A stretch of 54,757 nucleotides of DNA from an uncultured Candidatus Saccharibacteria bacterium (GCA_964624165.1 CAZUWG010000001.1:41296-96052), one strand, 5' to 3'. Positions 11,021 through 30,049 are shown, counted from the stretch's first letter. Numbers and translations: made by a program. The notes: a model not told the origin generated them from the sequence alone.

Positions 11021-12079
11021 TTAGTCAGTGATCACAACACTGCTTTCAAAGGCGTTGTTGTGTAGATTTGAATCGTTGTCGATCGCCAGTACAACACCAA
11101 ATCGTACGAGACCGGTATCTTCAAAATTCGTGAATCCAAGCGTCAAGAGTGAGTGTTCGTTTGGCTTGAGGCCGTTTTGACGGTTTGAGTTGAAGCGTTG
11201 GCCGTTTGGAAGTGCGGCCGAAAAGGTAAAGTCTTGTGAGGTCTTAGTACCCAAGTTGGTGATTTTAAACTGGATTGCTCCCTTGCTATCGCTATCTATA
11301 GTGCTTCCTTTTACAAACTGATTTTGAGCAGTCATGTATCCGACGCCAATGAGTTCAATCTTTAAGTCGCTAAAACCATCGGGATTTGATTTGGGAATTT
11401 CGTAGATAGGCACTTCTACGTACACAGGTGGTTGTGGTGTAGGGCGAGGGGTGGCGATTGGTGTATCGTCAACTTCCTCCTCTTCCTCAATGACTGGAGT
11501 TTCTTCTTCTGGAGTTGTAGTGTCTTCTCCCGCCACCTCTCCGTCATTATTGAAGTCTTGGCTGGTTGGAATGTCTGGGTTTAGTACGGTAAAGCGAGCG
11601 TCTTTGGTAAACATATCGTCAGCGATATCAATAAAGACAAGGCTATAGTGTACCTCAGTAAAACGCTTTTGTGAGGAAGTAACCAAGATATCGAGCTTTG
11701 TGCTGTTGCCGAGGTCAATCTCTTCGTCACATGCCAGCGTACGGATCGTATCGCTTGGATACTTAATCTGCATAGTGACGCCGTCGGTACATTCGTACGA
11801 GAAATAGTAATTACCAGCGAGACCAAGATCATTCCAAGTCAAAGTATGATCTTGGTTGTGGTCGATGATCGCGTTGTTGTTACTGACAATGATTTCAATA
11901 TCACCTTTATCCTGCTGATAAAGACTATTGGCGAGAGAGGCGAGGGACGTGAACGCGTTTGGTACCAAGCCTACTGCTTGCACAGCGAGCCACACCAAAA
12001 ATACAATCACGACAATAAAGATGCCAATAGTAATGGCACGATGTCCTGCGTTTTCTGGAGTTGTTGTTTCTTTGTTCAT
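11021..12079 (-). CDS. hypothetical membrane-anchored extracellular protein (352 aa)
   Basis: N-terminal TM (ITIGIFIVVIVFLVWLAVQAV). Two beta-rich halves separated by an acidic/Pro-rich linker (TTTPEEETPVIEEEEEVDDTPIATPRPTPQPP). No C-terminal sorting signal. Confidence 0.6.
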   Translation of the reverse strand: MNKETTTPENAGHRAITIGIFIVVIVFLVWLAVQAVGLVPNAFTSLASLANSLYQQDKGDIEIIVSNNNAIIDHNQDHTLTWNDLGLAGNYYFSYECTDGVTMQIKYPSDTIRTLACDEEIDLGNSTKLDILVTSSQKRFTEVHYSLVFIDIADDMFTKDARFTVLNPDIPTSQDFNNDGEVAGEDTTTPEEETPVIEEEEEVDDTPIATPRPTPQPPVYVEVPIYEIPKSNPDGFSDLKIELIGVGYMTAQNQFVKGSTIDSDSKGAIQFKITNLGTKTSQDFTFSAALPNGQRFNSNRQNGLKPNEHSLLTLGFTNFEDTGLVRFGVVLAIDNDSNLHNNAFESSVVITD

Positions 12080-12271: not shown

Positions 12272-12300
12272 TTGACAAATGTCTAAAAACATGTATTATA
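12272..12300 (+). promoter_or_regulatory. promoter for sortase gene (TTGACA-N16/17-TATTAT/ATTATA)
   Basis: Consensus -35 and TG-preceded -10, read directly. Divergent from the 12201..12228 promoter. Confidence 0.5.
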
Positions 12301-12327: not shown

Positions 12328-13008
12328 ATGCCACAAATTTCAAAAGACATTATTTTCTACATTCGTGAAAACCCCCTTCAATTTTTTGGTGTCTTCTTTG
12401 TGGTAGTCTTTTTCTCATACCTGTTTCTTTATATAGTCGATTTTTATCCAGAACCAAAAGAACAGACCGCTGTAGAAGAAAGCGAACTCGATGAAATCAC
12501 ACCTGACCGAGACATTCTTTCAGGAGTGGAGGTAACCTCGGATACAAGCAAGGAAGTGAATACTCAGTCTGGTGAATTGCCGATCAAGATCACTTTTGAG
12601 AGCCTTTCGCGTACTGTGACAGTACTCAACTCAGCCTCGGCAGATCTGGCAACACTTGAGGCAGACCTTCAAAAAGGTGTGATTCGCCACCCTGACTCAG
12701 TAAAGCTCGGTGAAAAAGGAAATGTGGTGATCTTGGGTCACTCAAGCTACCTACCAAATGTAATGAACAAAAATTACCAGGCATTTAATGGTATTCAAGA
12801 CTTGATGTGGGGAGACACTATCAGGGTCGCTTCTCTTGATAAGGTATATGTTTATCGTGTGGAGCGCGTGTATAAAGCCACTACAGACGAAGTCGTGCCG
12901 GTAGAGGGTAATGAAAAGACATTGACACTTGTCACTTGCAACGTGTTTGGGGCTAAAGAAGACCGATATATCCTTGAAGCGACGCTGCAGGAGGTAAAAG
13001 ACGCCTAA
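12328..13008 (+). CDS. sortase-family transpeptidase (226 aa)
   Basis: N-terminal TM anchor. Conserved His (VVILGHSSY), TLxTC catalytic Cys (TLVTCN, Cys codon 12936-12938), downstream Arg (RYILEATL). Confidence 0.85.
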   Translation: MPQISKDIIFYIRENPLQFFGVFFVVVFFSYLFLYIVDFYPEPKEQTAVEESELDEITPDRDILSGVEVTSDTSKEVNTQSGELPIKITFESLSRTVTVLNSASADLATLEADLQKGVIRHPDSVKLGEKGNVVILGHSSYLPNVMNKNYQAFNGIQDLMWGDTIRVASLDKVYVYRVERVYKATTDEVVPVEGNEKTLTLVTCNVFGAKEDRYILEATLQEVKDA

Positions 13009-13013
13009 ATATA

Positions 13014-13041
13014 TTGACAAAAATATAAATCGTGCTATACT
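13014..13041 (+). promoter_or_regulatory. near-consensus promoter TTGACA-N16-(TGc)TATACT immediately after the sortase stop
   Basis: Read directly. Predicted TSS ~13048. Confidence 0.5.
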
Positions 13042-13135
13042 TTCTTTAATCTTTAAAAGTGGTGTACAGTACACCATAAGGCGCGTTCTCTCAACTACAT
13101 ATCAGTTCCTCTCTGCTTAAGCTTGGTCGCTTGAG

Positions 13136-13179
13136 GCGGGTGGATTTTTTATAACGTGCGTTATAAAAAATCCACCCGC
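13136..13179 (+). repeat. perfect 20-bp inverted repeat (GCGGGTGGATTTTTTATAAC-gtgc-GTTATAAAAAATCCACCCGC)
   Basis: Read directly. The ORF-track GTG start at 13156 lies in its loop. Confidence 0.8.
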
Positions 13180-13196
13180 ATGGTGTGGGTAGCTCG

Positions 13197-13240
13197 CTTG
13201 GGCGTCGAATGTTTTCGCATGAAAACATTCGACGCCCAAG
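13197..13240 (+). repeat. second perfect 20-bp inverted repeat (CTTGGGCGTCGAATGTTTTC-gcat-GAAAACATTCGACGCCCAAG)
   Basis: Read directly. Lies 17 nt after the first hairpin and 41 nt before the SD-preceded ATG at 13282. Confidence 0.8.
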
Positions 13241-13281
13241 AAGGGGCATGTGAAAATCACAATTCAAAGAAGGAGGACATT

Positions 13282-13899
13282 ATGTCCAACAGCTTCATTA
13301 GTTGCGTCATGGCGGTCGCTTTCGCTGGGGTCGGCTTCGTCGCCGACCCAGCCGCGCTCTTCGAGCGTGGCGCGCTGACGGTCTCGACCGCCGTGGCCTG
13401 TGATAGCGCCTGCCAAGTCGCCGCTTGGCAGGCAACGCGTGATCCCTACAAGGATCGGACTGCGCCGAGGCAGGTAGATACCTGTGTGCGCATCTTGGCG
13501 TCCGACAGGTATGCCATGATGTCAGAAGTCGTTCTGGTGGCTGGGGCGGATCCGCAGAATGGCCGAGAAATTACCTCGCTTGGGCGTGGTAATGGGTTCG
13601 CATATCGCGAGCCCAATCAGCCGGCCGGTACGGCGGACGTTTACGTCCGTGAATTCTGCTTCAATGGCCGTTTGATTGACGGTCTCGACACCATCACGTT
13701 CTGCAACGGGATGAACCCTGGTGACGGAAATCACCACACTCTGTCGTTGCATGATGACAGCGGGGCATTGCTCCGCCGTTTGAAAGAGACAGGCCAGGCG
13801 GGTGATTATCTCTCGTTGCTGGGGAGCAAGCGCTCCTACACTGCGCCGGTCGCAACTTTCTTCACAGCGACGAGGTATCAAAGCCGTTTTGGCAGGTAG
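13282..13899 (+). CDS. hypothetical secreted protein, compositionally foreign (205 aa)
   Basis: Strong SD (AAGGAGG, 5 nt before the ATG). Signal-peptide-like N-terminus (SFISCVMAVAFAGVGFVADPAA). GC3-rich codons. Hand count of 326/540 G+C over 13321-13860. No family recognised. Confidence 0.6.
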   Translation: MSNSFISCVMAVAFAGVGFVADPAALFERGALTVSTAVACDSACQVAAWQATRDPYKDRTAPRQVDTCVRILASDRYAMMSEVVLVAGADPQNGREITSLGRGNGFAYREPNQPAGTADVYVREFCFNGRLIDGLDTITFCNGMNPGDGNHHTLSLHDDSGALLRRLKETGQAGDYLSLLGSKRSYTAPVATFFTATRYQSRFGR

Positions 13900-13906
13900 A
13901 GAAATT

Positions 13907-13930
13907 GGGAAATGCGTTCGCGCGTTTCCC
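13907..13930 (+). terminator. hairpin GGGAAATGCG-ttcg-CGCGTTTCCC after the high-GC ORF
   Basis: 10-bp stem with one G-U pair. Downstream is only weakly T-rich. Confidence 0.4.
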
Positions 13931-14093
13931 ACCCTTATTATTCTTGCGTACTAGGTGAAAAAGTCTGAAAGACTTTTGCAAGACTTTGCCAAATAATTCT
14001 TTAGAATTATCGGCAAAGTGTACAGCACCTGTAAGGTGTAGGTAAGAATATCGGGGTTTATTAAAAAATTATCAATTTTTATTCAATATATTT

Positions 14094-16277
14094 ATGATGA
14101 CAACAACATTCAATAAAGTGGCCTTTAGTCTCGTACTCGTCGCATTTGCATTTGGTATTTTTACCTATGTGAGTCAACAAACCAACTTACTTAATGAAGC
14201 ACTTGCTGTTGGTTCGGGAGCAGGTGATGGCGGCTGTTGCGGCGGCGGTTCTGACAATGGCGGCGGTCACGGAAACAACGGTGACCGCGGAGACAACTAT
14301 AATGACTACAACTACCCTAAGGCAGTTTGTGTTATTACCGCGTCTGCGACGTCAGTAGCAGCAGGTGATACCTACACAATCCGATGGAACGGTTCGTATG
14401 GTGCTTTTAAGTACAACGGCGTAAACGTCGGTGATACAGGTTCACGCACTATCACTATGAGGGCAAATGAAACGTCTCGCACTTTTACGTTGACCGGACA
14501 AGGCTTTGACAGCTCGTGTTCAGCAAAAGTAACGGTAAAAAAGAAAGCGGAACCTGCGCCAGTTTGTGAGTCATTTACGATTGCACCAAAGCAGCTTCCA
14601 GCAACTGGAGGCAAGGTAAAGCTTACCTGGGCTACTAAGAACGCGACTAAAGTAACAATCAACAACGGTATCGGCGAAGTAGGTCACGTCACAAATCTTT
14701 CAGGGCGTGGTGAAGATATTGCAGCAAATAATACTACTTCACCAAAAAAGCACACTTACGTACTTACAGCTCACAATGCTGAAGGAAAAAAAGTAAGCTG
14801 TTCTGCTTCTGTAACCGTAAAGGGTAAGGAAGTTGTCGTGCCGAAAGTAATACCAAAGTGTGACTCTTTCTCTATAGATAAAGCGAAAGTATATCCGGGA
14901 GGCAAGGTGACACTGACTTGGAAAACAACAAACGCGACTAAAGTAACGATCAACAACGGTATTGGTCAGGTAGGTCATGAGACAAATCTCTCTGGCCGTC
15001 CACACACCATGCCAAACAGTATCGGCACCTACACCTTTATTCTTACTGCTGAAAGCAAAGATGGCGTCAAGCGATCTTGTCAGGATGTAGTTGAAGTGAT
15101 TAAAAAGCCAGTGACTGAAATCACAGGCTGTACAGATAAAGATGCAACCAACTACAACCCGAAAGCTACTAAGGACGATGGTAGCTGTCACTACGCAAAG
15201 GTCGTACCAAAGTGTGACATGTTTACAGTGAACAAGACACAGGTATACCCTGGTAAAGATGTAGTGTTTACTTGGGAAACAACCAATGCTAGCAAGGTAT
15301 CAATCAATAATGGTATCGGGAACGTAGCTGTCGACAACACTCAAGGACGCACTTACACCATGCCAAACAGCATCGGTACCTACACCTTCGTCTTGACTGC
15401 AGTCAGTAAAGATCAGATTATCCGCACTTGTGAAAAGGTAGTGTATGTCAAAAAGCAGCCAGATCACAAAGTACCCGGCTGTACTGATGTAGATGCAACC
15501 AACTACAACCCGAAAGCTACTGAAGATGATGGAAGTTGTAAGTATAAAGAAGTGGAATACCCAAAGTGTGACTTCCTTCGTGTCAATGATGACGAAGTAC
15601 GCAAGGGAACTGAAGTAACATTGACGTGGGGAACTACGAATGCAGATCGTGTAGAAATCAACAACGGCATTGGTCGTGTTGATGAAGATGGTAACTACGA
15701 TGTAGTAATCAATAATGATACCGATTTCGTTCTGACTGCCTACGGAGATGATGGAAAGAAAGACACGTGTTCAGTTGATGTCAATGTTGAATCAGGCGGC
15801 GGCGGTGGTGGTTCACCACTTCCACGTTGTGAATTGAAGGCCTCTGATCGCAAGATCAAAGCTGGAGAACGAGTCACTCTTGAATGGGAAACTCGATTCG
15901 GACGTGAGCTTACTATCTACGAAGGTGATAAAGATGACGGAGACGACATCTATGACACTGACGATGAAGACGATGTAGAAGAAGGAGAGATTACTGTCCG
16001 TCCCACTCGTGATACAACCTATACATTGGTAGTAGAACGAGGTTCACGAGATCGTGAATGTGATGTTGAGATTGAAGTAGAAGATGATGAGGTGACCGTG
16101 ATCGATGACCGAGACCAAACACCGCGCGTGGCTGGTATCACACTGACACAGGTGCCGTACACTGGCTTTGAAGCTGGTCCAGCACTCACACTCTTGTTTT
16201 ACGCACTCTTGGCACTATGGGGATTGTTTGTGGCATATCACTTTGTCATTCGAAAAAAAGAACAGAAGCTCTACTAG
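14094..16277 (+). CDS. modular cell-surface protein with C-terminal sorting-signal-like tail (727 aa)
   Basis: N-terminal signal/anchor (VAFSLVLVAFAFGIFTYV), Gly/Asn-rich spacer, six Cys-bracketed ~70-80-aa repeats. Tail is an acidic stalk, then QVPYTG + hydrophobic helix + IRKKEQKLY. Confidence 0.85.
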   Translation: MMTTTFNKVAFSLVLVAFAFGIFTYVSQQTNLLNEALAVGSGAGDGGCCGGGSDNGGGHGNNGDRGDNYNDYNYPKAVCVITASATSVAAGDTYTIRWNGSYGAFKYNGVNVGDTGSRTITMRANETSRTFTLTGQGFDSSCSAKVTVKKKAEPAPVCESFTIAPKQLPATGGKVKLTWATKNATKVTINNGIGEVGHVTNLSGRGEDIAANNTTSPKKHTYVLTAHNAEGKKVSCSASVTVKGKEVVVPKVIPKCDSFSIDKAKVYPGGKVTLTWKTTNATKVTINNGIGQVGHETNLSGRPHTMPNSIGTYTFILTAESKDGVKRSCQDVVEVIKKPVTEITGCTDKDATNYNPKATKDDGSCHYAKVVPKCDMFTVNKTQVYPGKDVVFTWETTNASKVSINNGIGNVAVDNTQGRTYTMPNSIGTYTFVLTAVSKDQIIRTCEKVVYVKKQPDHKVPGCTDVDATNYNPKATEDDGSCKYKEVEYPKCDFLRVNDDEVRKGTEVTLTWGTTNADRVEINNGIGRVDEDGNYDVVINNDTDFVLTAYGDDGKKDTCSVDVNVESGGGGGGSPLPRCELKASDRKIKAGERVTLEWETRFGRELTIYEGDKDDGDDIYDTDDEDDVEEGEITVRPTRDTTYTLVVERGSRDRECDVEIEVEDDEVTVIDDRDQTPRVAGITLTQVPYTGFEAGPALTLLFYALLALWGLFVAYHFVIRKKEQKLY
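14328..16061 (+). repeat. in-frame tandem coding repeats (six Ig-like modules plus two CTDxDATNYNPKATxDDGSC mini-modules)
   Basis: Modules bounded by C79/C142, C158/C236, C256/C329, C374/C446, C492/C559, C579/C656. Near-identical DNA blocks, e.g. 15129-15188 vs 15480-15539 and ~14930-14960 vs ~14640-14670. Confidence 0.8.
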
Positions 16278-16283
16278 CTAGCG

Positions 16284-16310
16284 CAAAAGACGCCTCAAAG
16301 GCGTCTTTTG
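16284..16310 (+). terminator. hairpin CAAAAGACGCC-tcaaa-GGCGTCTTTTG 7 nt after the surface-protein stop
   Basis: 11-bp stem read directly. Lies inside the upstream part of ORF 16217..17053. Confidence 0.5.
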
Positions 16311-16465
16311 CAGTAGAGCAGACGGCTCCTGCGTCTCAGGCGACAGCAGTCGAGGCTAGCATCCCCGCACCAACGTACAGTAGTGATATAGCGCCAGTGA
16401 ATCTTCCGATTGAGAAAGAAGAAGCCCCACAGGTGATTGGCTATGCTGCTCGTGAGGTGGATGAA

Positions 16466-17053
16466 ATGATTGAAGAGGTGAAAGAAGTGACGACAGAAAC
16501 AAAAGCAATGCATATGCTCGAGCAGCATGCTCATGAGCACCGAGCTTTGATATCAAGTGATGCCTTGCGTGTGATTGTACGAGATTTACCAACAGAAGGA
16601 GAACGTATCACAAAACTTGATGAGCTTATCGCCGAGGCCAAAGCTGCCTATCCAAGCGAAGATGGGTGGATTGTCCTCAATCTTGAGCGACTTGAAGCAT
16701 TGCTGAAAGCAGAAACCAGTGCCGTTCTCGATGTAGACAATGCTACCGTAGGGGTAGGTTCGCTCGCTGAGGCGATTGCCCTTGGCGATCTCGAGGCAGC
16801 ATACGTACTCATTGGTCGACGACCAATGCTGGCGTTGGCAGACGCCGCCGCCGACTTTGATGCGCTCTATCGAATGCGCCAAGGCGGTGACGAGCAGGTT
16901 TCTTCATTACTTGTGTCAACACTTGGCAATCGTAGTGATGAAGAAGTGGTGGCGGTTGTAAAGACGCTCACCAGTGCGCTTGACGGCACATACACGACCG
17001 AAGTTGATGCAGTGAAGGTGGCGATTATGAAAGCAGTGCGACTTCTTTCATAG
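16466..17053 (+). CDS. hypothetical acidic helical protein (195 aa from ATG 16466; frame open from 16217)
   Basis: ATG 16466 is preceded by GAGGTG at 6-nt spacing. The same frame is open back to 16217 and overlaps the previous CDS, so it may be the C-terminal part of a frameshifted/split gene (see findings). Confidence 0.45.
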   Translation: MIEEVKEVTTETKAMHMLEQHAHEHRALISSDALRVIVRDLPTEGERITKLDELIAEAKAAYPSEDGWIVLNLERLEALLKAETSAVLDVDNATVGVGSLAEAIALGDLEAAYVLIGRRPMLALADAAADFDALYRMRQGGDEQVSSLLVSTLGNRSDEEVVAVVKTLTSALDGTYTTEVDAVKVAIMKAVRLLS

Positions 17054-17119: not shown

Positions 17120-18865
17120 TTACAACACCTTCGTATCAATCTCGGTCAAGAGATGGTTGGCGGCGTGTGAGAGCTCCATCAGCTCCGAGGTGCCGTCTCG
17201 TTTTTCAAGTGTGACTTGCTTTGCCTCGGTCTCTTTATCACCAATCACAATAAAGTATGGAAGTTTGGCTTGCTTCGCGCCTCGTATCTTCTTGCCCATA
17301 CTTTCTTTACTGTCATCGAGTTGGACACGGATTCCGGCAGAATGTAGCGCTTTATGCACCTCGTGCGCGTACTCGTAGTGCACTTCATTGACTGGAATAA
17401 TCGCTACTTGCACCGGCGCCAGCCAGAGTGGGAAGTTGCCACCAAGGTGCTCAAAGAGTACGGCTGCAAAACGCTCGACAGAACCCATGATCGCACAGTG
17501 AATCATAACGATGCGCTCTTTCTCACCTGCTTCGTTGATGCAGGTGAGATCAAAACGCTCAGGGAGATTCATATCAAGCTGGATGGTTGCTACTTGATGT
17601 TCTCGACCAAGTGAGTCTTTGGCCATAAAATCGAGTTTTGGTCCGTACATAGCCGCCTCTCCCGGTGCTTCAAAATATTCCGCGCCACGTTCTTTTGCAA
17701 TGTCGCGCAGTGCGTTTTCGGCGTTGTTCCAGATTTCCTTAGTGCCTAAATATTTTTCCATTTCACTTGGCTCGTGGAAGGAAAGGCGAACAAGTATCTC
17801 TGAAAAGCCGAAGGTGGCGTAGAAGGTGTCGACCATATCCCAGATGCGGAAGAATTCTTCCTTGACCTGACTGTGTCGGCAAAAGACATGGCTATCGTCT
17901 TGCGTGATAGAGAGAACGCGTGTGAGACCACCCAATTCTCCAGATTGTTCGTCTCGATACACCATGGTGGTCTCAGCATAGCGTTGCGGCATATCTCGGT
18001 AGCTGTGAGGTTTGCGATCAAATATCTGTGTGTGATGGGGACAGTTCATCGGTTTTAGAGCGTACTCCTTTCCTTCTCGGGTGGTGATACGAAAGAGCTC
18101 GTCCGCAAATTTATCCCAGTGGCCAGACTTTTGGTAAAGGTCTTTTTTAGTGATGTGGGGGATGGTGACACGTTGGTAACCATTTTTTTCACGAAGTTGC
18201 CAGATGTAGGTATCTAAGAGATGACGTACCAAGCTACCGTCTGGTGTCCAGAGCGGTAAGCCAGCACCGACGAGCTCTGAGAAGGTAAAGAGATCCATTT
18301 CTTTCCCTAGTTTCCGATGGTCGCGTTTTTTGGCTTCTTCAAGCTGAGTGATATAGGCGTCCAGCTCGTCTTTCGTATCAAAAGCCAAACCATAGATACG
18401 TGTAAGCATCGGGTTTTTCTCATCACCGCGCCAATACGCGCCGGCAATTTTGTCGAGCTTAAAGGCGTCGGTATTGAGCTCGTCTTTCGGACGCTCTACG
18501 TGTCCGCCACGGCAGAGGTCGGTAAAACCGCCGGCAGTGTAGAGAGTGATTGTCTCACCTTTGGCCTGGATTTCATCAATAAGCTCAAGCTTAAATTTAT
18601 TATCTGCAAAGTGTTTGCGAGCATCTTCAGCAGATACTTCTACATGAGAAAAAACGTCCCATTTGTTGAGGAGTTTCTTCATGGTTTTTTGAAGTAGTTT
18701 CAGATCGTCTTCGCCAGGCGTCTCTCCTTTGCTAAAGTCGATATCATAATAAAATCCAGTGTCGGTCGCAGGGCCGAGGGTCAGCTTGGCTTGCGGATAA
18801 TGCTCTAAGACCGCCGCCGCTAAGAGGTGGGCCAGGGTGTGTCGCTTATGTTCGAGAGTGTTCAT
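17120..18865 (-). CDS. thrS: threonine--tRNA ligase lacking the N-terminal TGS domain (581 aa)
   Basis: Begins MNTLEHKRHTLAHLLAAAV (second additional/editing domain HxxxH). Class II core and anticodon-binding domain. The 64 upstream codons in the ORF track are a T-box leader. Confidence 0.93.
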   Translation of the reverse strand: MNTLEHKRHTLAHLLAAAVLEHYPQAKLTLGPATDTGFYYDIDFSKGETPGEDDLKLLQKTMKKLLNKWDVFSHVEVSAEDARKHFADNKFKLELIDEIQAKGETITLYTAGGFTDLCRGGHVERPKDELNTDAFKLDKIAGAYWRGDEKNPMLTRIYGLAFDTKDELDAYITQLEEAKKRDHRKLGKEMDLFTFSELVGAGLPLWTPDGSLVRHLLDTYIWQLREKNGYQRVTIPHITKKDLYQKSGHWDKFADELFRITTREGKEYALKPMNCPHHTQIFDRKPHSYRDMPQRYAETTMVYRDEQSGELGGLTRVLSITQDDSHVFCRHSQVKEEFFRIWDMVDTFYATFGFSEILVRLSFHEPSEMEKYLGTKEIWNNAENALRDIAKERGAEYFEAPGEAAMYGPKLDFMAKDSLGREHQVATIQLDMNLPERFDLTCINEAGEKERIVMIHCAIMGSVERFAAVLFEHLGGNFPLWLAPVQVAIIPVNEVHYEYAHEVHKALHSAGIRVQLDDSKESMGKKIRGAKQAKLPYFIVIGDKETEAKQVTLEKRDGTSELMELSHAANHLLTEIDTKVL

Positions 18866-19068
18866 AGTAGAGATAGTATAATTTTTAAAAATAAATAGCC
18901 CGCGCAAAATCCAAAACAACGTTTGAATTTTGCGCGGGCGATCTAGCCGCGGTTCCACCGCGCTTCCAGGATAATCCTGGCACTTGATTGTACAGATTAG
19001 AAGGTGGTTGCCTTGGGCGCGAGATTCGCTAGCGCCCTGACGGTTGGTAGCCATCACAATCTCTGCGT
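18866..19068 (-). promoter_or_regulatory. T-box riboswitch leader (threonine specifier) of thrS
   Basis: On the minus strand: Stem I with candidate specifier ACC+A (19008-19005) and Stem III CCAGGA-uua-UCCUGG (18966-18980). T-box GCGCGG-UGGAACC-GCG..CGC-CCGCGC (~18933-18963) forms a canonical antiterminator with 7-nt bulge. A competing terminator GCCCGCGCAAAAU...AUUUUGCGCGGGC (18898-18939) is followed by a U-run. Confidence 0.75.
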
Positions 19069-25557: not shown

Positions 25558-26454
25558 ATGGCCAATCGACATCTTTCTCGTTCATTAGTTCTTCAAACTC
25601 TTTTTGAGTGGGATATTAATGGTGTAGAACGAAAAGCAATTAAAGAGACATTAGTGCGCAACGTCGAAGAGTTTGCTCCCAATAGCTCGGACCTGCCTTT
25701 TATGGAGAAGCTCCTTGATGGTATTATTGGAAAGCAAAGCGAGCTTGATCTTGTGATTGAGAAGGCGGCGCCTGAGTGGCCGATCGATCGCATTGCGCCG
25801 GTTGATAGAAACATCCTTCGACTTGGTTTGTTTGAACTTTTATTTTCAGATCGAAAAGAAGTGCCGGCCAAAGTGGCAATCAATGAAGCGATTGAGCTCG
25901 CAAAACAATTTGGCAGTGAAAATAGTAGCCGCTTCGTGAACGGCGTCTTAGGTGCAGTGTATAAAGAGATTGGTGAGCCGGGCAAAGATGAACAAGGCAA
26001 AAAACCAAAAAAAAATATTCCGTACGAGCAGATGCCGATTAAGCGCCTGGCGGGTGCGGTGGTGTATGCTGAGCACGAAGGTGAAATATTCTTTGCGCTC
26101 GTCCATGATATTTTTGGCCACTGGACGCTCCCTAAAGGGGGAGTAGAGGAAGGAGTAGCGATGGAAGAGGGTGCAAAATTAAAAATCAAAGAGGAGATTG
26201 GTATCGATATTACCATTGAAAAAGAATTGGGTAACAATGAGTATATCGCCAATAAGCCTGATATTGGTAAGCATCGCAAACAAGTGATGTACTTCCTGGG
26301 GCGGGCAGACTTTGTGGAGTTGGAGCTTGAAAAGAAAGGCGGGCTTGATGATGCGCAGTGGTTTAAGATTTCTGATATTCTCGAGTTAAATTTTTATGAA
26401 GATATTCTGCCGATTGTCACGAAAGCAGTGACTATCGTAGTGTCAAAAAAATAG
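25558..26454 (+). CDS. nusB: NusB antitermination factor fused to a C-terminal Nudix-fold domain (298 aa)
   Basis: aa 1-135 are NusB-like (DRIAPVDRNILRLGLFELLF, VAINEAIELAKQFG..SSRFVNGVLGAV). A K-rich linker follows. aa ~165-298 are Nudix-fold (GHWTLPKGGVEEGVAMEEGAKLKIKEEIGI). Confidence 0.85.
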   Translation: MANRHLSRSLVLQTLFEWDINGVERKAIKETLVRNVEEFAPNSSDLPFMEKLLDGIIGKQSELDLVIEKAAPEWPIDRIAPVDRNILRLGLFELLFSDRKEVPAKVAINEAIELAKQFGSENSSRFVNGVLGAVYKEIGEPGKDEQGKKPKKNIPYEQMPIKRLAGAVVYAEHEGEIFFALVHDIFGHWTLPKGGVEEGVAMEEGAKLKIKEEIGIDITIEKELGNNEYIANKPDIGKHRKQVMYFLGRADFVELELEKKGGLDDAQWFKISDILELNFYEDILPIVTKAVTIVVSKK

Positions 26455-27266: not shown

Positions 27267-27851
27267 ATGAGATCAATGTATAAAAAAGGATTTACCGTCC
27301 CAGAAATGATGATTGTGATTGGGATTATCTCTATTTTTGCAGCTATTGTATTTACTGGATATTCAAAATATCGCGAGCGTGCGAGAGATGCTGTGCGCGA
27401 AGTTGATATAGAACGCTTGGCCGTCACTATGCGCCTTTATATAGAGCAGTATGGCTCTGATATGGATTGTGAAGGCGGACTAAAGATAGACGGCAATATG
27501 ACAGTAGTATCGTACGGTGGAGGTCCGCAGGATTGTGATGACGGAGCACAGATTTTGCAATTTATTGCAAATGAACACAACGGCATACCTCATGACCCAC
27601 TTGGACCGGGTAATTTAGATTATTATTATTACTTTGATAACTGGCATCAGTGCGCTGCTGGAGGAGCGAGTAACGCAGCAGCGATGCTATTTGCCGTGAA
27701 TCTTGAAAGCCAAGATACAAATGCTGTGACCGTGTGCGGTTCGCACGAGGGAGCACAAGGTGGGTATTTGCGTACCACAGATTATGGCGGCACTCTTACT
27801 GCAAGTCAGCCTTACGTACGACTTGTCACTCGTTCACGAGAAACTTGGTGA
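27267..27851 (+). CDS. type IV pilin / pseudopilin-like protein
   Basis: Prepilin leader and N-methylation motif KKGFTVPEMMIVIGIISIFAAIVF. Start could be ATG 27276. Confidence 0.8.
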   Translation: MRSMYKKGFTVPEMMIVIGIISIFAAIVFTGYSKYRERARDAVREVDIERLAVTMRLYIEQYGSDMDCEGGLKIDGNMTVVSYGGGPQDCDDGAQILQFIANEHNGIPHDPLGPGNLDYYYYFDNWHQCAAGGASNAAAMLFAVNLESQDTNAVTVCGSHEGAQGGYLRTTDYGGTLTASQPYVRLVTRSRETW

Positions 27852-30049
27852 TGCAGCTTAAACAACTTTCAATTAACGGATTTAAATCATTCGCCAAAAA
27901 AGGTGAGCTTGAGTTCGTGTCGCCAGTTACGGCGATTGTAGGGCCAAATGGTTCGGGTAAGAGTAATGTCGCCGAAGCCTTCCGTTTTGTGCTTGGTGAG
28001 CAAAGCAATAAGGGTATGCGCGCCAAAAGCGGCGCTGACCTTATCTTTAATGGTTCAGAAAAGGTGGCACGTTCTAGTCGGGCCTCTGTTGAAGTGCTTT
28101 TAGATAATAGTGCGCGGGTGTTTCCGCTCGATTTTGACGAAGTCAAAATCGAGCGGATCGTCCATCGTGATGGCCAAAACGAGTACCTCCTAAACGATTC
28201 TAAGGTGCGTTTGAAAGACGTGCAGGAGGTATTAGCAGCTGCCAATATCGGTCCTTCCGGACATCATATCATCTCTCAAGGTGAAGCTGATCGGGTACTG
28301 ACGGCCTCGCCAAAAGAGCGTCGAGAAATGATCGAAGATGCGCTTGGGTTAAAGGTCTACCAATATAAAAAACAGGAGGCAGAAAAAAAGCTTCAAAAGA
28401 CAGTTGAAAATATTGAAAAAGTAGAATCACTGCGGAGGGAGGTGGCACCTCATTTAAAGTTTCTTGAACGGCAAGTAGAGAAAATGGCGCGGTCGATAGC
28501 GTTGCGACAAGAGTTGGTCGGTACCTATCATGAGTATTTAAAGCGTGAGGAACGCTACCTAGAGCAGACTAGGGTGCGTCTAGAGCGGGAACAAAAAGAA
28601 CCAGAGGAGCAGTTGCTTTTGCTGAAGACCACCCTCAAAGCAGTCGAAGAAAAGCTCTCCTTAGCACCAAAGCGAGCAGTAGATCCGCGCCTTGCGGAAG
28701 TGGAAGAAAAACTACATCAAAACGCATCTCAGTTGTCATCGCTTTTGCGAGAAAGTGGCAAGCTCGAAGGACAAATTTCCTATATTAGAGAAAAACAGAG
28801 TGCAAGCAAAGTAAGTGGTGAAGAAGAAAAATTAGTGCCATTTTTGAAAGTGAAGGCACTCACTGAGGAGCTTGATAAAGGTTTGGAAGATGCTCGAACA
28901 CAAGCTGATGTTTTGGGTGTGCTTAAAGTGCTTGATCGTATGTCGGCTGCCTGGCGGGCGTTGGTGACAGAAGTGTCAGATAGCGAGCGAGTAGTGGGAG
29001 AAAAGGATAGAGAAGAGGAGCTGGGGGTTCTTCAGGCGTCTCTACAGGAATGTACTCAGCATATAGAAACAGTGCGCAAAAATGAGTCCGTGCTGCAAGA
29101 TCAATTGCATTCATTAAAAAATGAAGCAGAGGCCGCGCGCGCTGCTGACCGCGAGTGTGAACACGAGCGGTTTCGTCTTAGTACCGAGATCGCAGCGGTG
29201 GAGCGAACGCTCACTGAGCTCACCATGAAGCGGCAAGTCCTGGAGCGAGATCGTGAGGCTTGGAAAGAAGAGCTTCAGGAAGCAGTCGCTCTTTTAGGAA
29301 GGGATGCTTCAGGCTACCGAGACTTCATAATCGAAGGTCTGGCAGATGAGGACCGCTCAGTACAGTATGATCGCAGACGTCAGCTTGAAAAACTGAAGAT
29401 TCGCTTAGAAGAGGTGGGCGGAGTCGATCCTGAAGTCGAACGAGAATACAAAGAAACTAAAGAGCGCGATGCGTTTTTGGTTGGTGAAATTAATGATCTC
29501 AATACGTCGGTCGCGACTCTTAGTCAGCTGATTGCTGATTTGACCGGACAACTCAACGAGCGTTTTGTAGTAGGTATCGAAAAGATTGATACTGAGTTTC
29601 GTAAATTTTTCACTTTAATGTTTGGTGGCGGGGAAGCAAAACTATTGCGCGTGTTGTTAAAGCAAAAAGAAGGAGATGAAGAGAGTGAGCCGGTTGAGGG
29701 GCTTGAAGTGGATGTAAAGCTTCCTAATAAGCGCGTACGGGGGCTCGAGATGCTCTCAGGCGGTGAACGGGCCCTTACCTCAATTGCGCTTATTTTTGCG
29801 ATGAGTCAAGTCAATCCGCCACTCTTTATTATTCTCGATGAAACTGATGCGGCACTTGATGAAGCTAACAGTCGTCGCTATGGCGATATGATTGAAGCCT
29901 TGGCCAAGAAATCGCAGCTTATTTTGATTACACATAATCGTGAGACAATGTCGCGTGCTAGTGTGCTCTATGGAGTGACAATGGCGGGAGATGGTGTGTC
30001 TAAGCTTTTGTCGGTAAAGCTAAATGAGGCAGTGGCGCATGCGAAGTAG
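27851..30049 (+). CDS. smc: SMC-family chromosome-partition ATPase, short form (732 aa)
   Basis: N-terminus LSINGFKSFA...IVGPNGSGKSNVAEAFRFVLGEQS. C-terminal LSGGERALTSIAL + FIILDETDAALD. Heptad-rich middle. The ATG overlaps the pilin TGA by 1 nt, so the ORF-track N-terminal 39 aa were discarded. Confidence 0.85.
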   Translation: MQLKQLSINGFKSFAKKGELEFVSPVTAIVGPNGSGKSNVAEAFRFVLGEQSNKGMRAKSGADLIFNGSEKVARSSRASVEVLLDNSARVFPLDFDEVKIERIVHRDGQNEYLLNDSKVRLKDVQEVLAAANIGPSGHHIISQGEADRVLTASPKERREMIEDALGLKVYQYKKQEAEKKLQKTVENIEKVESLRREVAPHLKFLERQVEKMARSIALRQELVGTYHEYLKREERYLEQTRVRLEREQKEPEEQLLLLKTTLKAVEEKLSLAPKRAVDPRLAEVEEKLHQNASQLSSLLRESGKLEGQISYIREKQSASKVSGEEEKLVPFLKVKALTEELDKGLEDARTQADVLGVLKVLDRMSAAWRALVTEVSDSERVVGEKDREEELGVLQASLQECTQHIETVRKNESVLQDQLHSLKNEAEAARAADRECEHERFRLSTEIAAVERTLTELTMKRQVLERDREAWKEELQEAVALLGRDASGYRDFIIEGLADEDRSVQYDRRRQLEKLKIRLEEVGGVDPEVEREYKETKERDAFLVGEINDLNTSVATLSQLIADLTGQLNERFVVGIEKIDTEFRKFFTLMFGGGEAKLLRVLLKQKEGDEESEPVEGLEVDVKLPNKRVRGLEMLSGGERALTSIALIFAMSQVNPPLFIILDETDAALDEANSRRYGDMIEALAKKSQLILITHNRETMSRASVLYGVTMAGDGVSKLLSVKLNEAVAHAK

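Follow-up and report, generated by a model that had tools for sequence, protein, structure and literature searches.

A VPYTG-bearing surface-protein gene beside a sortase, with a candidate frame-switch site, in candidate phyla radiation bacteria

Gene content of the sortase locus

We analyzed a 54,757-nucleotide (nt) stretch of DNA from an uncultured Candidatus Saccharibacteria bacterium (GCA_964624165.1 CAZUWG010000001.1:41296-96052), here called the window, in which a sortase gene lies upstream of a gene for a surface protein that carries the pentapeptide VPYTG. A preliminary description of this DNA had placed three open reading frames (ORFs) at the locus, encoding the sortase, the VPYTG protein and a divergently transcribed membrane protein, and the ORF list finds all three at the positions it gave. 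The features on which the following argument depends, numbered from the first letter of the window, are:

11021-12079, minus strand: divergent type-II membrane protein, 352 amino acids (aa), from homologues and an AlphaFold2 (AF2) model
12328-13008, plus strand: membrane-anchored sortase, 226 aa, from the match to Pfam Sortase PF04203
14094-16277, plus strand: surface-protein gene, 0-frame part, 727 aa, from ORF reading, repeats and orthologues
16113-16181, plus strand: juxtamembrane motif DQTPRVAGITLTQ-VPYTG-FEAGP, from column counts over 76 copies
16182-16250, plus strand: transmembrane (TM) helix ALTLLFYALLALWGLFVAYHFVI, from column counts over 76 copies
16253-16259, plus strand: run of seven A (A7), heptamer A_AAA_AAA in the 0 frame (CGA AAA AAA GAA), the putative -1 switch point
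16259-17053, plus strand: -1-frame continuation, 264 codons and a stop (mechanical ORF 16217-17053, 278 aa), from homology and AF2
16268-16319, plus strand: stem-loop of 22 base pairs (bp), candidate frameshift stimulator, from folding and conservation in five sequences

The identification of the 226-aa protein as a sortase holds: the ORF scores 70.9 bits against Pfam PF04203 (cut-off 26.6) and its His-Cys-Arg triad is intact. A hydrophobic anchor lies near the N-terminus (residues ~18-38). Sequence alignment with the closest solved structure, the class D sortase 4D70 (E = 8e-9), places His138 (ILGHSS, codon 12739-12741), Cys204 (TLVTC, codon 12937-12939) and Arg213 (DRYI, codon 12964-12966) on the catalytic residues of that enzyme. 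None of the NCBIfam class cut-offs is reached by the sortase, the best score being that for class E (42.5 versus 160), followed by SrtD (41.4 versus 140), class D (38.1 versus 165), TIGR01076 (34.6 versus 39.35), class C (30.1 versus 160), TIGR03784 (20.9 versus 158) and class F (20.7 versus 166). By these profile scores the enzyme belongs to the sortase superfamily but to no defined class. Searches of Pfam and NCBIfam with the 727-aa, 278-aa, 352-aa and 247-aa ORFs returned no match; the sortase alone matched. Sortases are enriched in the candidate phyla radiation (CPR), with a family found in more than half of CPR genomes (Méheust et al., PMC6744442).

Homologues of the sortase and of the 352-aa protein were located by tblastn against all fetched related loci, which are denoted by L-numbers (L001 etc.) where they must be told apart. 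In 66 sources this placed a sortase homologue upstream on the same strand, and in 65 the 352-aa protein had a homologue beside the sortase on the opposite strand. The 8 sources without a sortase match all have <3.6 kb of DNA upstream of the match, and the module is therefore present at every informative locus (66/66). The sortases at these loci keep I[LV][GA]HSS, L-x-L-[AV]-TC and DR[YF], with the catalytic His, Cys and Arg in all 66, and the flanking synteny is kept as well, with gyrB on one side and thrS and dnaE on the other. Judged by this homology, the double beta-sandwich protein, the sortase and the bitopic surface protein constitute an envelope module conserved across the CPR class Paceibacteria (Parcubacteria), which supports the earlier view of the three genes as a single locus.

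The 352-aa protein, for which 40 homologues were found, consists of an N-terminal TM helix with a conserved P-AF-SLASLA, a first beta-sandwich (~60-170), a disordered acidic and Pro-containing linker (174-227) and a second beta-sandwich (~235-352). Its AF2 model has a predicted local distance difference test score (pLDDT) of 80 overall and >90 in both sandwiches. A Foldseek search gave it no specific identity, returning generic matches to tandem immunoglobulin (Ig)- or fibronectin type III-like folds (RbmA, transglutaminase barrels).

The 727-aa ORF begins with a hydrophobic N-terminus, KVAFSLVLVAFAFGIFTYV, which reads as a signal or anchor sequence. In its ectodomain a Gly-rich stretch is accompanied by some six Ig-like repeats of ~90 aa in tandem, of which the membrane-proximal repeat is kept in orthologues together with the motif that follows it. 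The ORF terminates in ...LTQVPYTGFEAGPALTLLFYALLALWGLFVAYHFVIRKKEQKLY and a stop codon. VPYTG occupies positions 16152-16166, with the putative scissile Thr/Gly bond between 16163 and 16164, and is followed by a 5-residue spacer and the 23-residue helix. Orthologue ectodomains are highly variable: CLIPPER/DUF11-type repeats occur in some (L084 3001-5778; L086 326-2248), and that of L001 is a long SSYYAQ low-complexity array with one Ig-like repeat.

The surface-protein gene continues in the -1 frame

The 278-aa ORF (16217-17053) overlaps the end of the 727-aa ORF in the -1 frame. It has >175 homologues in Patescibacteria, with source names including Kaiserbacteria and Nomurabacteria. Many of these are single polypeptides that run from the last Ig-like repeat through ISLTQ-VPYTG-FEAGP, the TM helix and a K/R cluster into a PxNLP linker and a conserved ~180-aa domain (C-domain) with the signatures LENxAH..LLSSDAxR, YPSEDGW, GSLAEAI, RPMxALADA and LTSALDGTYTxE..AVKxAIMKA. 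A first homologue search, made with the C-terminal 150 aa, had returned one match only, a consequence of the word index.

We surveyed one genome per species and obtained 72 Paceibacteria loci. The gene is one open frame of 650-1450 aa in ~60 of them, as it is in many metagenomic proteins, and VPYTG lies about 270-320 residues before the C-terminus, with a conserved cytoplasmic region of ~250 aa past the TM helix. The preliminary description had named as a possible objection that orthologues might continue past the TM helix as one long protein, and in ~60/72 species they do. All three parts of the C-terminal sorting signal that it described are present in the 0-frame product, but the motif is normally internal and, in the window, the -1 frame continues after the A7 run.

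Joining the two frames of the window gives a conceptual product of 722 + 264 = 986 aa that is colinear with the single-ORF orthologues across the junction (47-51% identity, E = 1e-105 to 1e-124), and the homology to these orthologues changes frame exactly at the A7 run. On the evidence of homology, this comparison shows the 727-aa and 278-aa ORFs to be two frame segments of a single gene. The trans-frame junction peptides predicted for the -1 product are ...FVIRKKRTEALLASAK and ...HFVIRKKRTEALLASAK.

The continuation comprises a cytoplasmic linker with PVNLP (16394-16408) and a helical domain of two subdomains (16484-17050). AF2 models residues 90-278 of the 278-aa ORF at pLDDT >90 as a small alpha/beta subdomain and a six-helix bundle. 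The C-domain has no Pfam or NCBIfam match, a Pfam search with all 120 homologues was also empty, and a PDB sequence search with the C-domain profile returned nothing. Homology to the clamp-loader lid/collar was considered and rejected, the Foldseek match being weak (template modelling score ~0.3, root-mean-square deviation >=13 Å).

A second form of the C-domain protein has two TM helices (2-TM) and neither an ectodomain nor PxTG (L030 9671-10684; L032 9247-10266; L033 9617-10699). At these three loci a catalytically intact sortase lies directly upstream, the synteny is otherwise identical, and no ectodomain gene is found nearby. As the C-domain occurs with or without an ectodomain, always beside the sortase, the module is probably organized around it.

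A runs and a hairpin at the frame switch

The sequence CG-A_AAA_AAA-G (16253-16259) conforms to the X_XXY_YYZ slippery heptamer. The stem-loop at 16268-16319 begins 8 nt past the A7 run, with a minimum free energy of -35.8 kcal/mol (z = -5.2), and its outer 5' arm has the 0-frame TAG stop (16275-16277) at the 3' edge. By analogy with known sites, the in-phase heptamer, 8-nt spacer and stem-loop have the classical layout of a -1 ribosomal frameshift signal. We also considered the hairpin as a terminator; its U4 is paired within the stem and a terminator scan made no call, and as no U-tract follows the full 22-bp stem this reading was rejected.

The window and loci L076, L081, L082 and L083 form an A7 clade in which all members read CGAAAAAAAGA. 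Their 0-frame tail is RKK[ED]xKLY followed by a stop, and their -1 frame goes on as KKRxxALLAS.KDA.... The stem is present in 5/5 of these sequences. Its outer 8 bp are essentially invariant (one G-U becomes A-U), two inner pairs change on both sides in a compensatory manner, and the stem nucleotides are far better conserved than is the protein linker in other clades.

At the equivalent place, L001, L018, L048, L072, L077/78, L079 and L080 have a run of nine A (A9). It sits in two codon phases (xTA-AAA-AAA-AAG-G and CTC-AAA-AAA-AAA-G), with a 0-frame tail KKK[VL]S before the stop and a -1 frame that goes on as (K)KK[GS]FLGF. The A9 loci share no downstream structure, most having z-scores of -1.2 to +1.3 against shuffled sequences; among them only L077 folds better than its shuffles (z = -3.2). 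A neighbour-joining tree of C-domains recovers the A7 group and the A9 group as two monophyletic clades. Within the A9 clade, C-domain identity falls as low as 48%, with the domain still conserved.

A second recoding site is predicted ~58 codons past VPYTG, where four further loci carry an A9 or A7 run:

L065, 9633-9870: A9 run
L084, 5533-5780: A9 or A7 run
L085, 3821-4060: A9 run
L086, 2021-2250: A9 run

Both the 0-frame tail at this site, KKVxxLAAKHSHxPWN and a stop, and the -1 frame are conserved, and a weak 9-bp consensus hairpin lies 8 nt downstream of the run. In total, the frame is broken at an A7 or A9 run in ~15 independent assemblies (JGI, ENA, Logan, NCBI), and every such locus needs a -1 shift, equal to one extra A. 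The sequence is identical across 3 samples (L001-L003) and across 2 assemblies (L077/L078).

Two further observations concern A runs and frame breaks elsewhere. The sole A9 of the window, at 26007-26015, is in frame and encodes part of a Lys-rich linker in a NusB-NUDIX fusion ORF (25558-26454). In L009 (4439-4620; Kaiserbacteria SZUA-408) a +1-type break interrupts the linker where there is no homopolymer, and a faulty assembly or a decaying gene is the probable cause.

Probable programmed recoding and its alternatives

Based on the conserved runs, tails and hairpin, we consider it probable that one gene is subject to programmed -1 recoding, with products of 727 and 986 aa. On reaching CGA-AAA-AAA, ribosomes would be made to pause by the 22-bp hairpin that begins 8 nt downstream, and some of them would slip by -1. 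The ribosomes that do not shift would stop five codons on and release a 727-aa product ending in VPYTG, the TM helix and RKKEQKLY, an end that would constitute a textbook tripartite sorting signal. Those that shift would make the ancestral, full-length 986-aa protein. In the A9 sister clades the outcome may be equivalent, with slippage of RNA polymerase the likelier mechanism, as these loci keep the length of the run and not its phase and have no conserved hairpin. Either mechanism yields two proteins with a common N-terminal part.

Several observations weigh against recoding in the window. The plus strand contains 28 runs of at least A7 where ~5 are expected, and with a ~5% chance of an A7 landing in the 105-nt overlap the run alone is weak evidence; because A7 runs are so frequent, the argument rests on conservation and not on the run. 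The covariation in the hairpin is thin (2 pairs in 5 close sequences, some with mismatches), and the stem is also coding. The missing Shine-Dalgarno (SD) sequence before the -1 ORF proves little, since most genes in the window have none, and we dropped its absence as an argument against an independent start of that ORF.

One alternative is that RNA polymerase slippage, adding one A, or a phase-variable DNA tract takes the place of a ribosomal -1 shift; for the window we think this unlikely. The A9 runs of the relatives, with their fixed length, variable codon phase and lack of a conserved downstream hairpin, favor slippage, as does the enrichment of A runs in the window. The homopolymers associated with transcriptional slippage have about 9 or more A or T, however, whereas the window has only A7, which is short for efficient slippage, and the in-phase heptamer, the 8-nt spacer and the strong conserved hairpin together resemble a classical ribosomal cassette. 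Phase variation would further have to account for ~15/15 assemblies in the identical out-of-frame state.

We consider it improbable that the two ORFs are separate genes, the 727-aa protein being an ordinary sortase substrate complete in itself and the 278-aa ORF encoding a cytoplasmic protein with its own start at ATG 16217 or later. The 0-frame product does show all three parts of a sorting signal, an ATG is present at 16217, and some database proteins start with MTELENRAH at the conserved domain, so that a stand-alone C-domain may exist. But the -1 ORF has no conserved start codon. The ATG, TTG or GTG found at 16217 or at the corresponding place in relatives stems from the Leu-Trp codons in the TM helix, and L018 and L048 have CTG there and no start codon before the run. 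The first ~12 codons of such a gene would be unconserved, out-of-frame TM sequence, and neither the frame change of the homology exactly at the A run nor the conservation of run and hairpin fits a separate gene.

A sequencing or assembly error or a decaying pseudogene, for which the error-prone nature of homopolymers and the homopolymer-free break of L009 might speak, is very improbable given an equal -1 defect in ~15 assemblies from four pipelines, identical sequence from separate samples, a break that persists down to 48% identity with the C-domain conserved, and the conserved 0-frame tails at the second site.

Conservation of the VPYTG block

Conservation of VPYTG in orthologues was a check proposed in the preliminary description. 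Column counts over 76 related copies show P, Y, T, G, F, A and G of VPYTGFEAG unchanged in 76/76; position 1 is Val in 74 and Thr in 2. As all 76 carry PYTGF-x-AG, the motif of the window is not a chance match. The Val at position 1 had been described as non-canonical, and it is the rule in this family, but there is a precedent in RrgC of S. pneumoniae, whose signal is VPDTG (PMC5640630). The TM helix has five invariant positions (F, Y, L, W and Y) in the 76 copies and aligns with TM2 of the 2-TM subfamily.

When the 54-residue segment of motif plus TM helix was searched exhaustively with HMMER, 316 representative proteins were found at E<=1e-3. We scored tail types in the best 147 of these 316, of which 144 carry the motif, 130 of them as VPYTG exactly. 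Past the helix, 114 of the best 147 have the C-domain and 19 have other tails. A further 11 end <=12 residues past the helix, and all 11 tails start with [RK]KK. A six-frame scan of the 54.7-kb window revealed no other xPx[TS]G followed by a hydrophobic helix.

VPYTG as a candidate sortase site

Whether the adjacent sortase cleaves VPYT|G and moves the ectodomain to the wall or to another amine acceptor is, in our estimate from these sequences, evenly balanced. Cleavage would leave a stub in the membrane consisting of GFEAGP and the TM helix, with or without the cytoplasmic domain, and recoding would in that case determine how much ectodomain is made relative to cytoplasmic domain. Consistent with cleavage, an xPxTG lies five residues ahead of the TM helix with K/R after it, and its Thr-Gly is invariant. 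The triad of the neighboring sortase is intact throughout the loci, and isoforms that end just past the helix have evolved repeatedly. The 2-TM subfamily is also informative, as it lacks the VPYT residues yet keeps G-x-x-G-x-GP and the helix.

Other observations count against cleavage. We know of no sortase substrate in which the TM helix is followed by a large cytoplasmic domain, and the helix and its flanks are far more conserved than ordinary sorting signals. The 2-TM proteins of L030, L032 and L033, which have no PxTG and no ectodomain, keep their intact sortase directly upstream, and the link between sortase and C-domain is therefore independent of VPYTG.

These points lead to the main alternative, which we regard as possible although rather doubtful: VPYTG is a structural juxtamembrane element, the TM helix and cytoplasmic domain are a partner, scaffold or regulator of the sortase, and the real substrates are encoded elsewhere in the genome. 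The ectodomain-less 2-TM relatives, still next to the sortase, agree with this, as do the invariant F, Y, L, W and Y of the helix and the invariant FEAGP, which generic sorting signals lack, and the internal position of the motif in most orthologues. The exact xPxTG spacing, the invariant Thr-Gly and the recurrent isoforms ending after the helix fit a sorting signal. We also looked for other C-terminal sorting signals in ~1.4 Mb of related loci, with whole genomes outside the search, and found noncoding-frame noise only and no other candidate signal.

The reading that we favor as a whole, in which a conserved module contains one gene that is recoded and whose product is cut by the sortase, appears reasonably likely. 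More tentatively, the locus may represent a CPR-specific, sortase-coupled device in which an internal VPYT|G cut splits a precursor and several lineages independently evolved poly-A recoding to set the stoichiometry of the halves. From such a device would come an ectodomain anchored in the wall (or linked to a partner) and a cytoplasmic domain tethered to the membrane, the latter with a function of its own, as suggested by the free-standing 2-TM form. The idea that the surface protein is an adhesin for attachment of an epibiont to its host, raised in the preliminary description, is pure speculation.

Significance, annotation and neighboring features

The envelopes of CPR/Patescibacteria are poorly understood. 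In the literature searched we found no description of VPYTG, of the module or of recoding in CPR bacteria, and no described substrate or motif for a sortase in Patescibacteria/Parcubacteria. The locus yields a candidate sortase-partner pair that is testable across the class with an exact peptide, LTQVPYTGFEAG, together with a new conserved cytoplasmic domain tied to a sortase and, apparently, the first comparative argument for programmed recoding of a surface-protein gene in CPR bacteria. It also carries a warning for annotation: gene callers split or truncate the gene, and a truncated prediction then looks like a perfect sorting signal. For several relatives, only the distal part was retained by the gene caller (132 aa of a 369-aa ORF in L001; 181-aa C-domain fragments).

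Two further features lie near the sortase gene:

12272-12299, plus strand: promoter-like TTGACA-16-TATTAT 5' of the sortase gene, 11/12 consensus match
13282-13899, plus strand: small secreted-protein ORF, 205 aa, in a variable slot

The promoter-like site was called from its consensus match alone. The 205-aa ORF has a GC content of 0.594 (0.466 for the window) and, unlike its neighbors, a strong AAGGAGG SD sequence, and it is flanked by hairpins; no counterpart was found in 75 related loci, and it matched no family. By appearance it is foreign DNA inserted into the variable slot between the sortase and surface-protein genes, outside the conserved module.

Elsewhere in the window, a type IV pilin-like ORF with an N_methyl motif (27267-27851, plus strand) adjoins an SMC-family ORF (27734-30049, plus strand), and their overlap is probably an artefact of a mechanical GTG start. 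A mechanical GTG start likewise adds ~65 noncoding-looking N-terminal residues to the threonyl-tRNA synthetase (17120-19057, minus strand), the real start of which is probably the Met before NTLEHKRHTLAHLL.

Comparison with known systems

The locus shares with the SrtA-type LPXTG system a membrane-anchored Cys transpeptidase with a His-Cys-Arg triad and a partner protein with a signal peptide, xPxTG, a TM helix and basic residues. Unlike that system, the sortase here fits no class A-F model, the motif sits inside a 20-residue invariant block, the TM helix is conserved in sequence, a cytoplasmic region of ~250 aa follows in most species, and there is apparently one dedicated partner gene beside the enzyme. 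A short basic terminal tail is found in the 0-frame product (RKKEQKLY and a stop), whereas ~60/72 orthologues run ~250-300 residues further; the definition of a sorting signal applies to the 0-frame isoform only.

SrtB with NPQTN and the TIGR03784 'class GN/marine' sortase with its adjacent target are single-substrate systems. As in these, one sortase is here accompanied by one neighboring, co-inherited candidate substrate with a family-specific motif. The present system differs from that of TIGR03784 in its weak match to the model (20.9 bits versus 158), its motif, its CPR lineage and its extra cytoplasmic domain.

For the frame switch, the closest parallels are dnaX tau/gamma and IS911, in which -1 frameshifting occurs at A_AAA_AAG with a downstream hairpin, and Thermus dnaX, in which transcriptional slippage occurs at A9. 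The window resembles dnaX and IS911 in its in-phase poly-A heptamer, 8-nt spacer and stable stem-loop, and in that the predicted products have a common N-terminus, the shorter of them terminating a few codons past the site; A9 variants are found in the sister clades. It differs in that the gene encodes a surface protein, that the shifted product is the long, ancestral one, and that no upstream SD-like stimulator is evident.

Class C pilin signals, such as VPDTG of RrgC (PMC5640630), have in common with VPYTG the Val at position 1, the P, T and G, and an enzyme encoded beside the substrate. In contrast to these, the locus lacks a pilin-type gene set, nothing points to polymerisation, and the X of its motif is an invariant Tyr. 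By analogy, the system would unite two known arrangements, a sortase dedicated to one substrate and a recoding site of the dnaX type.

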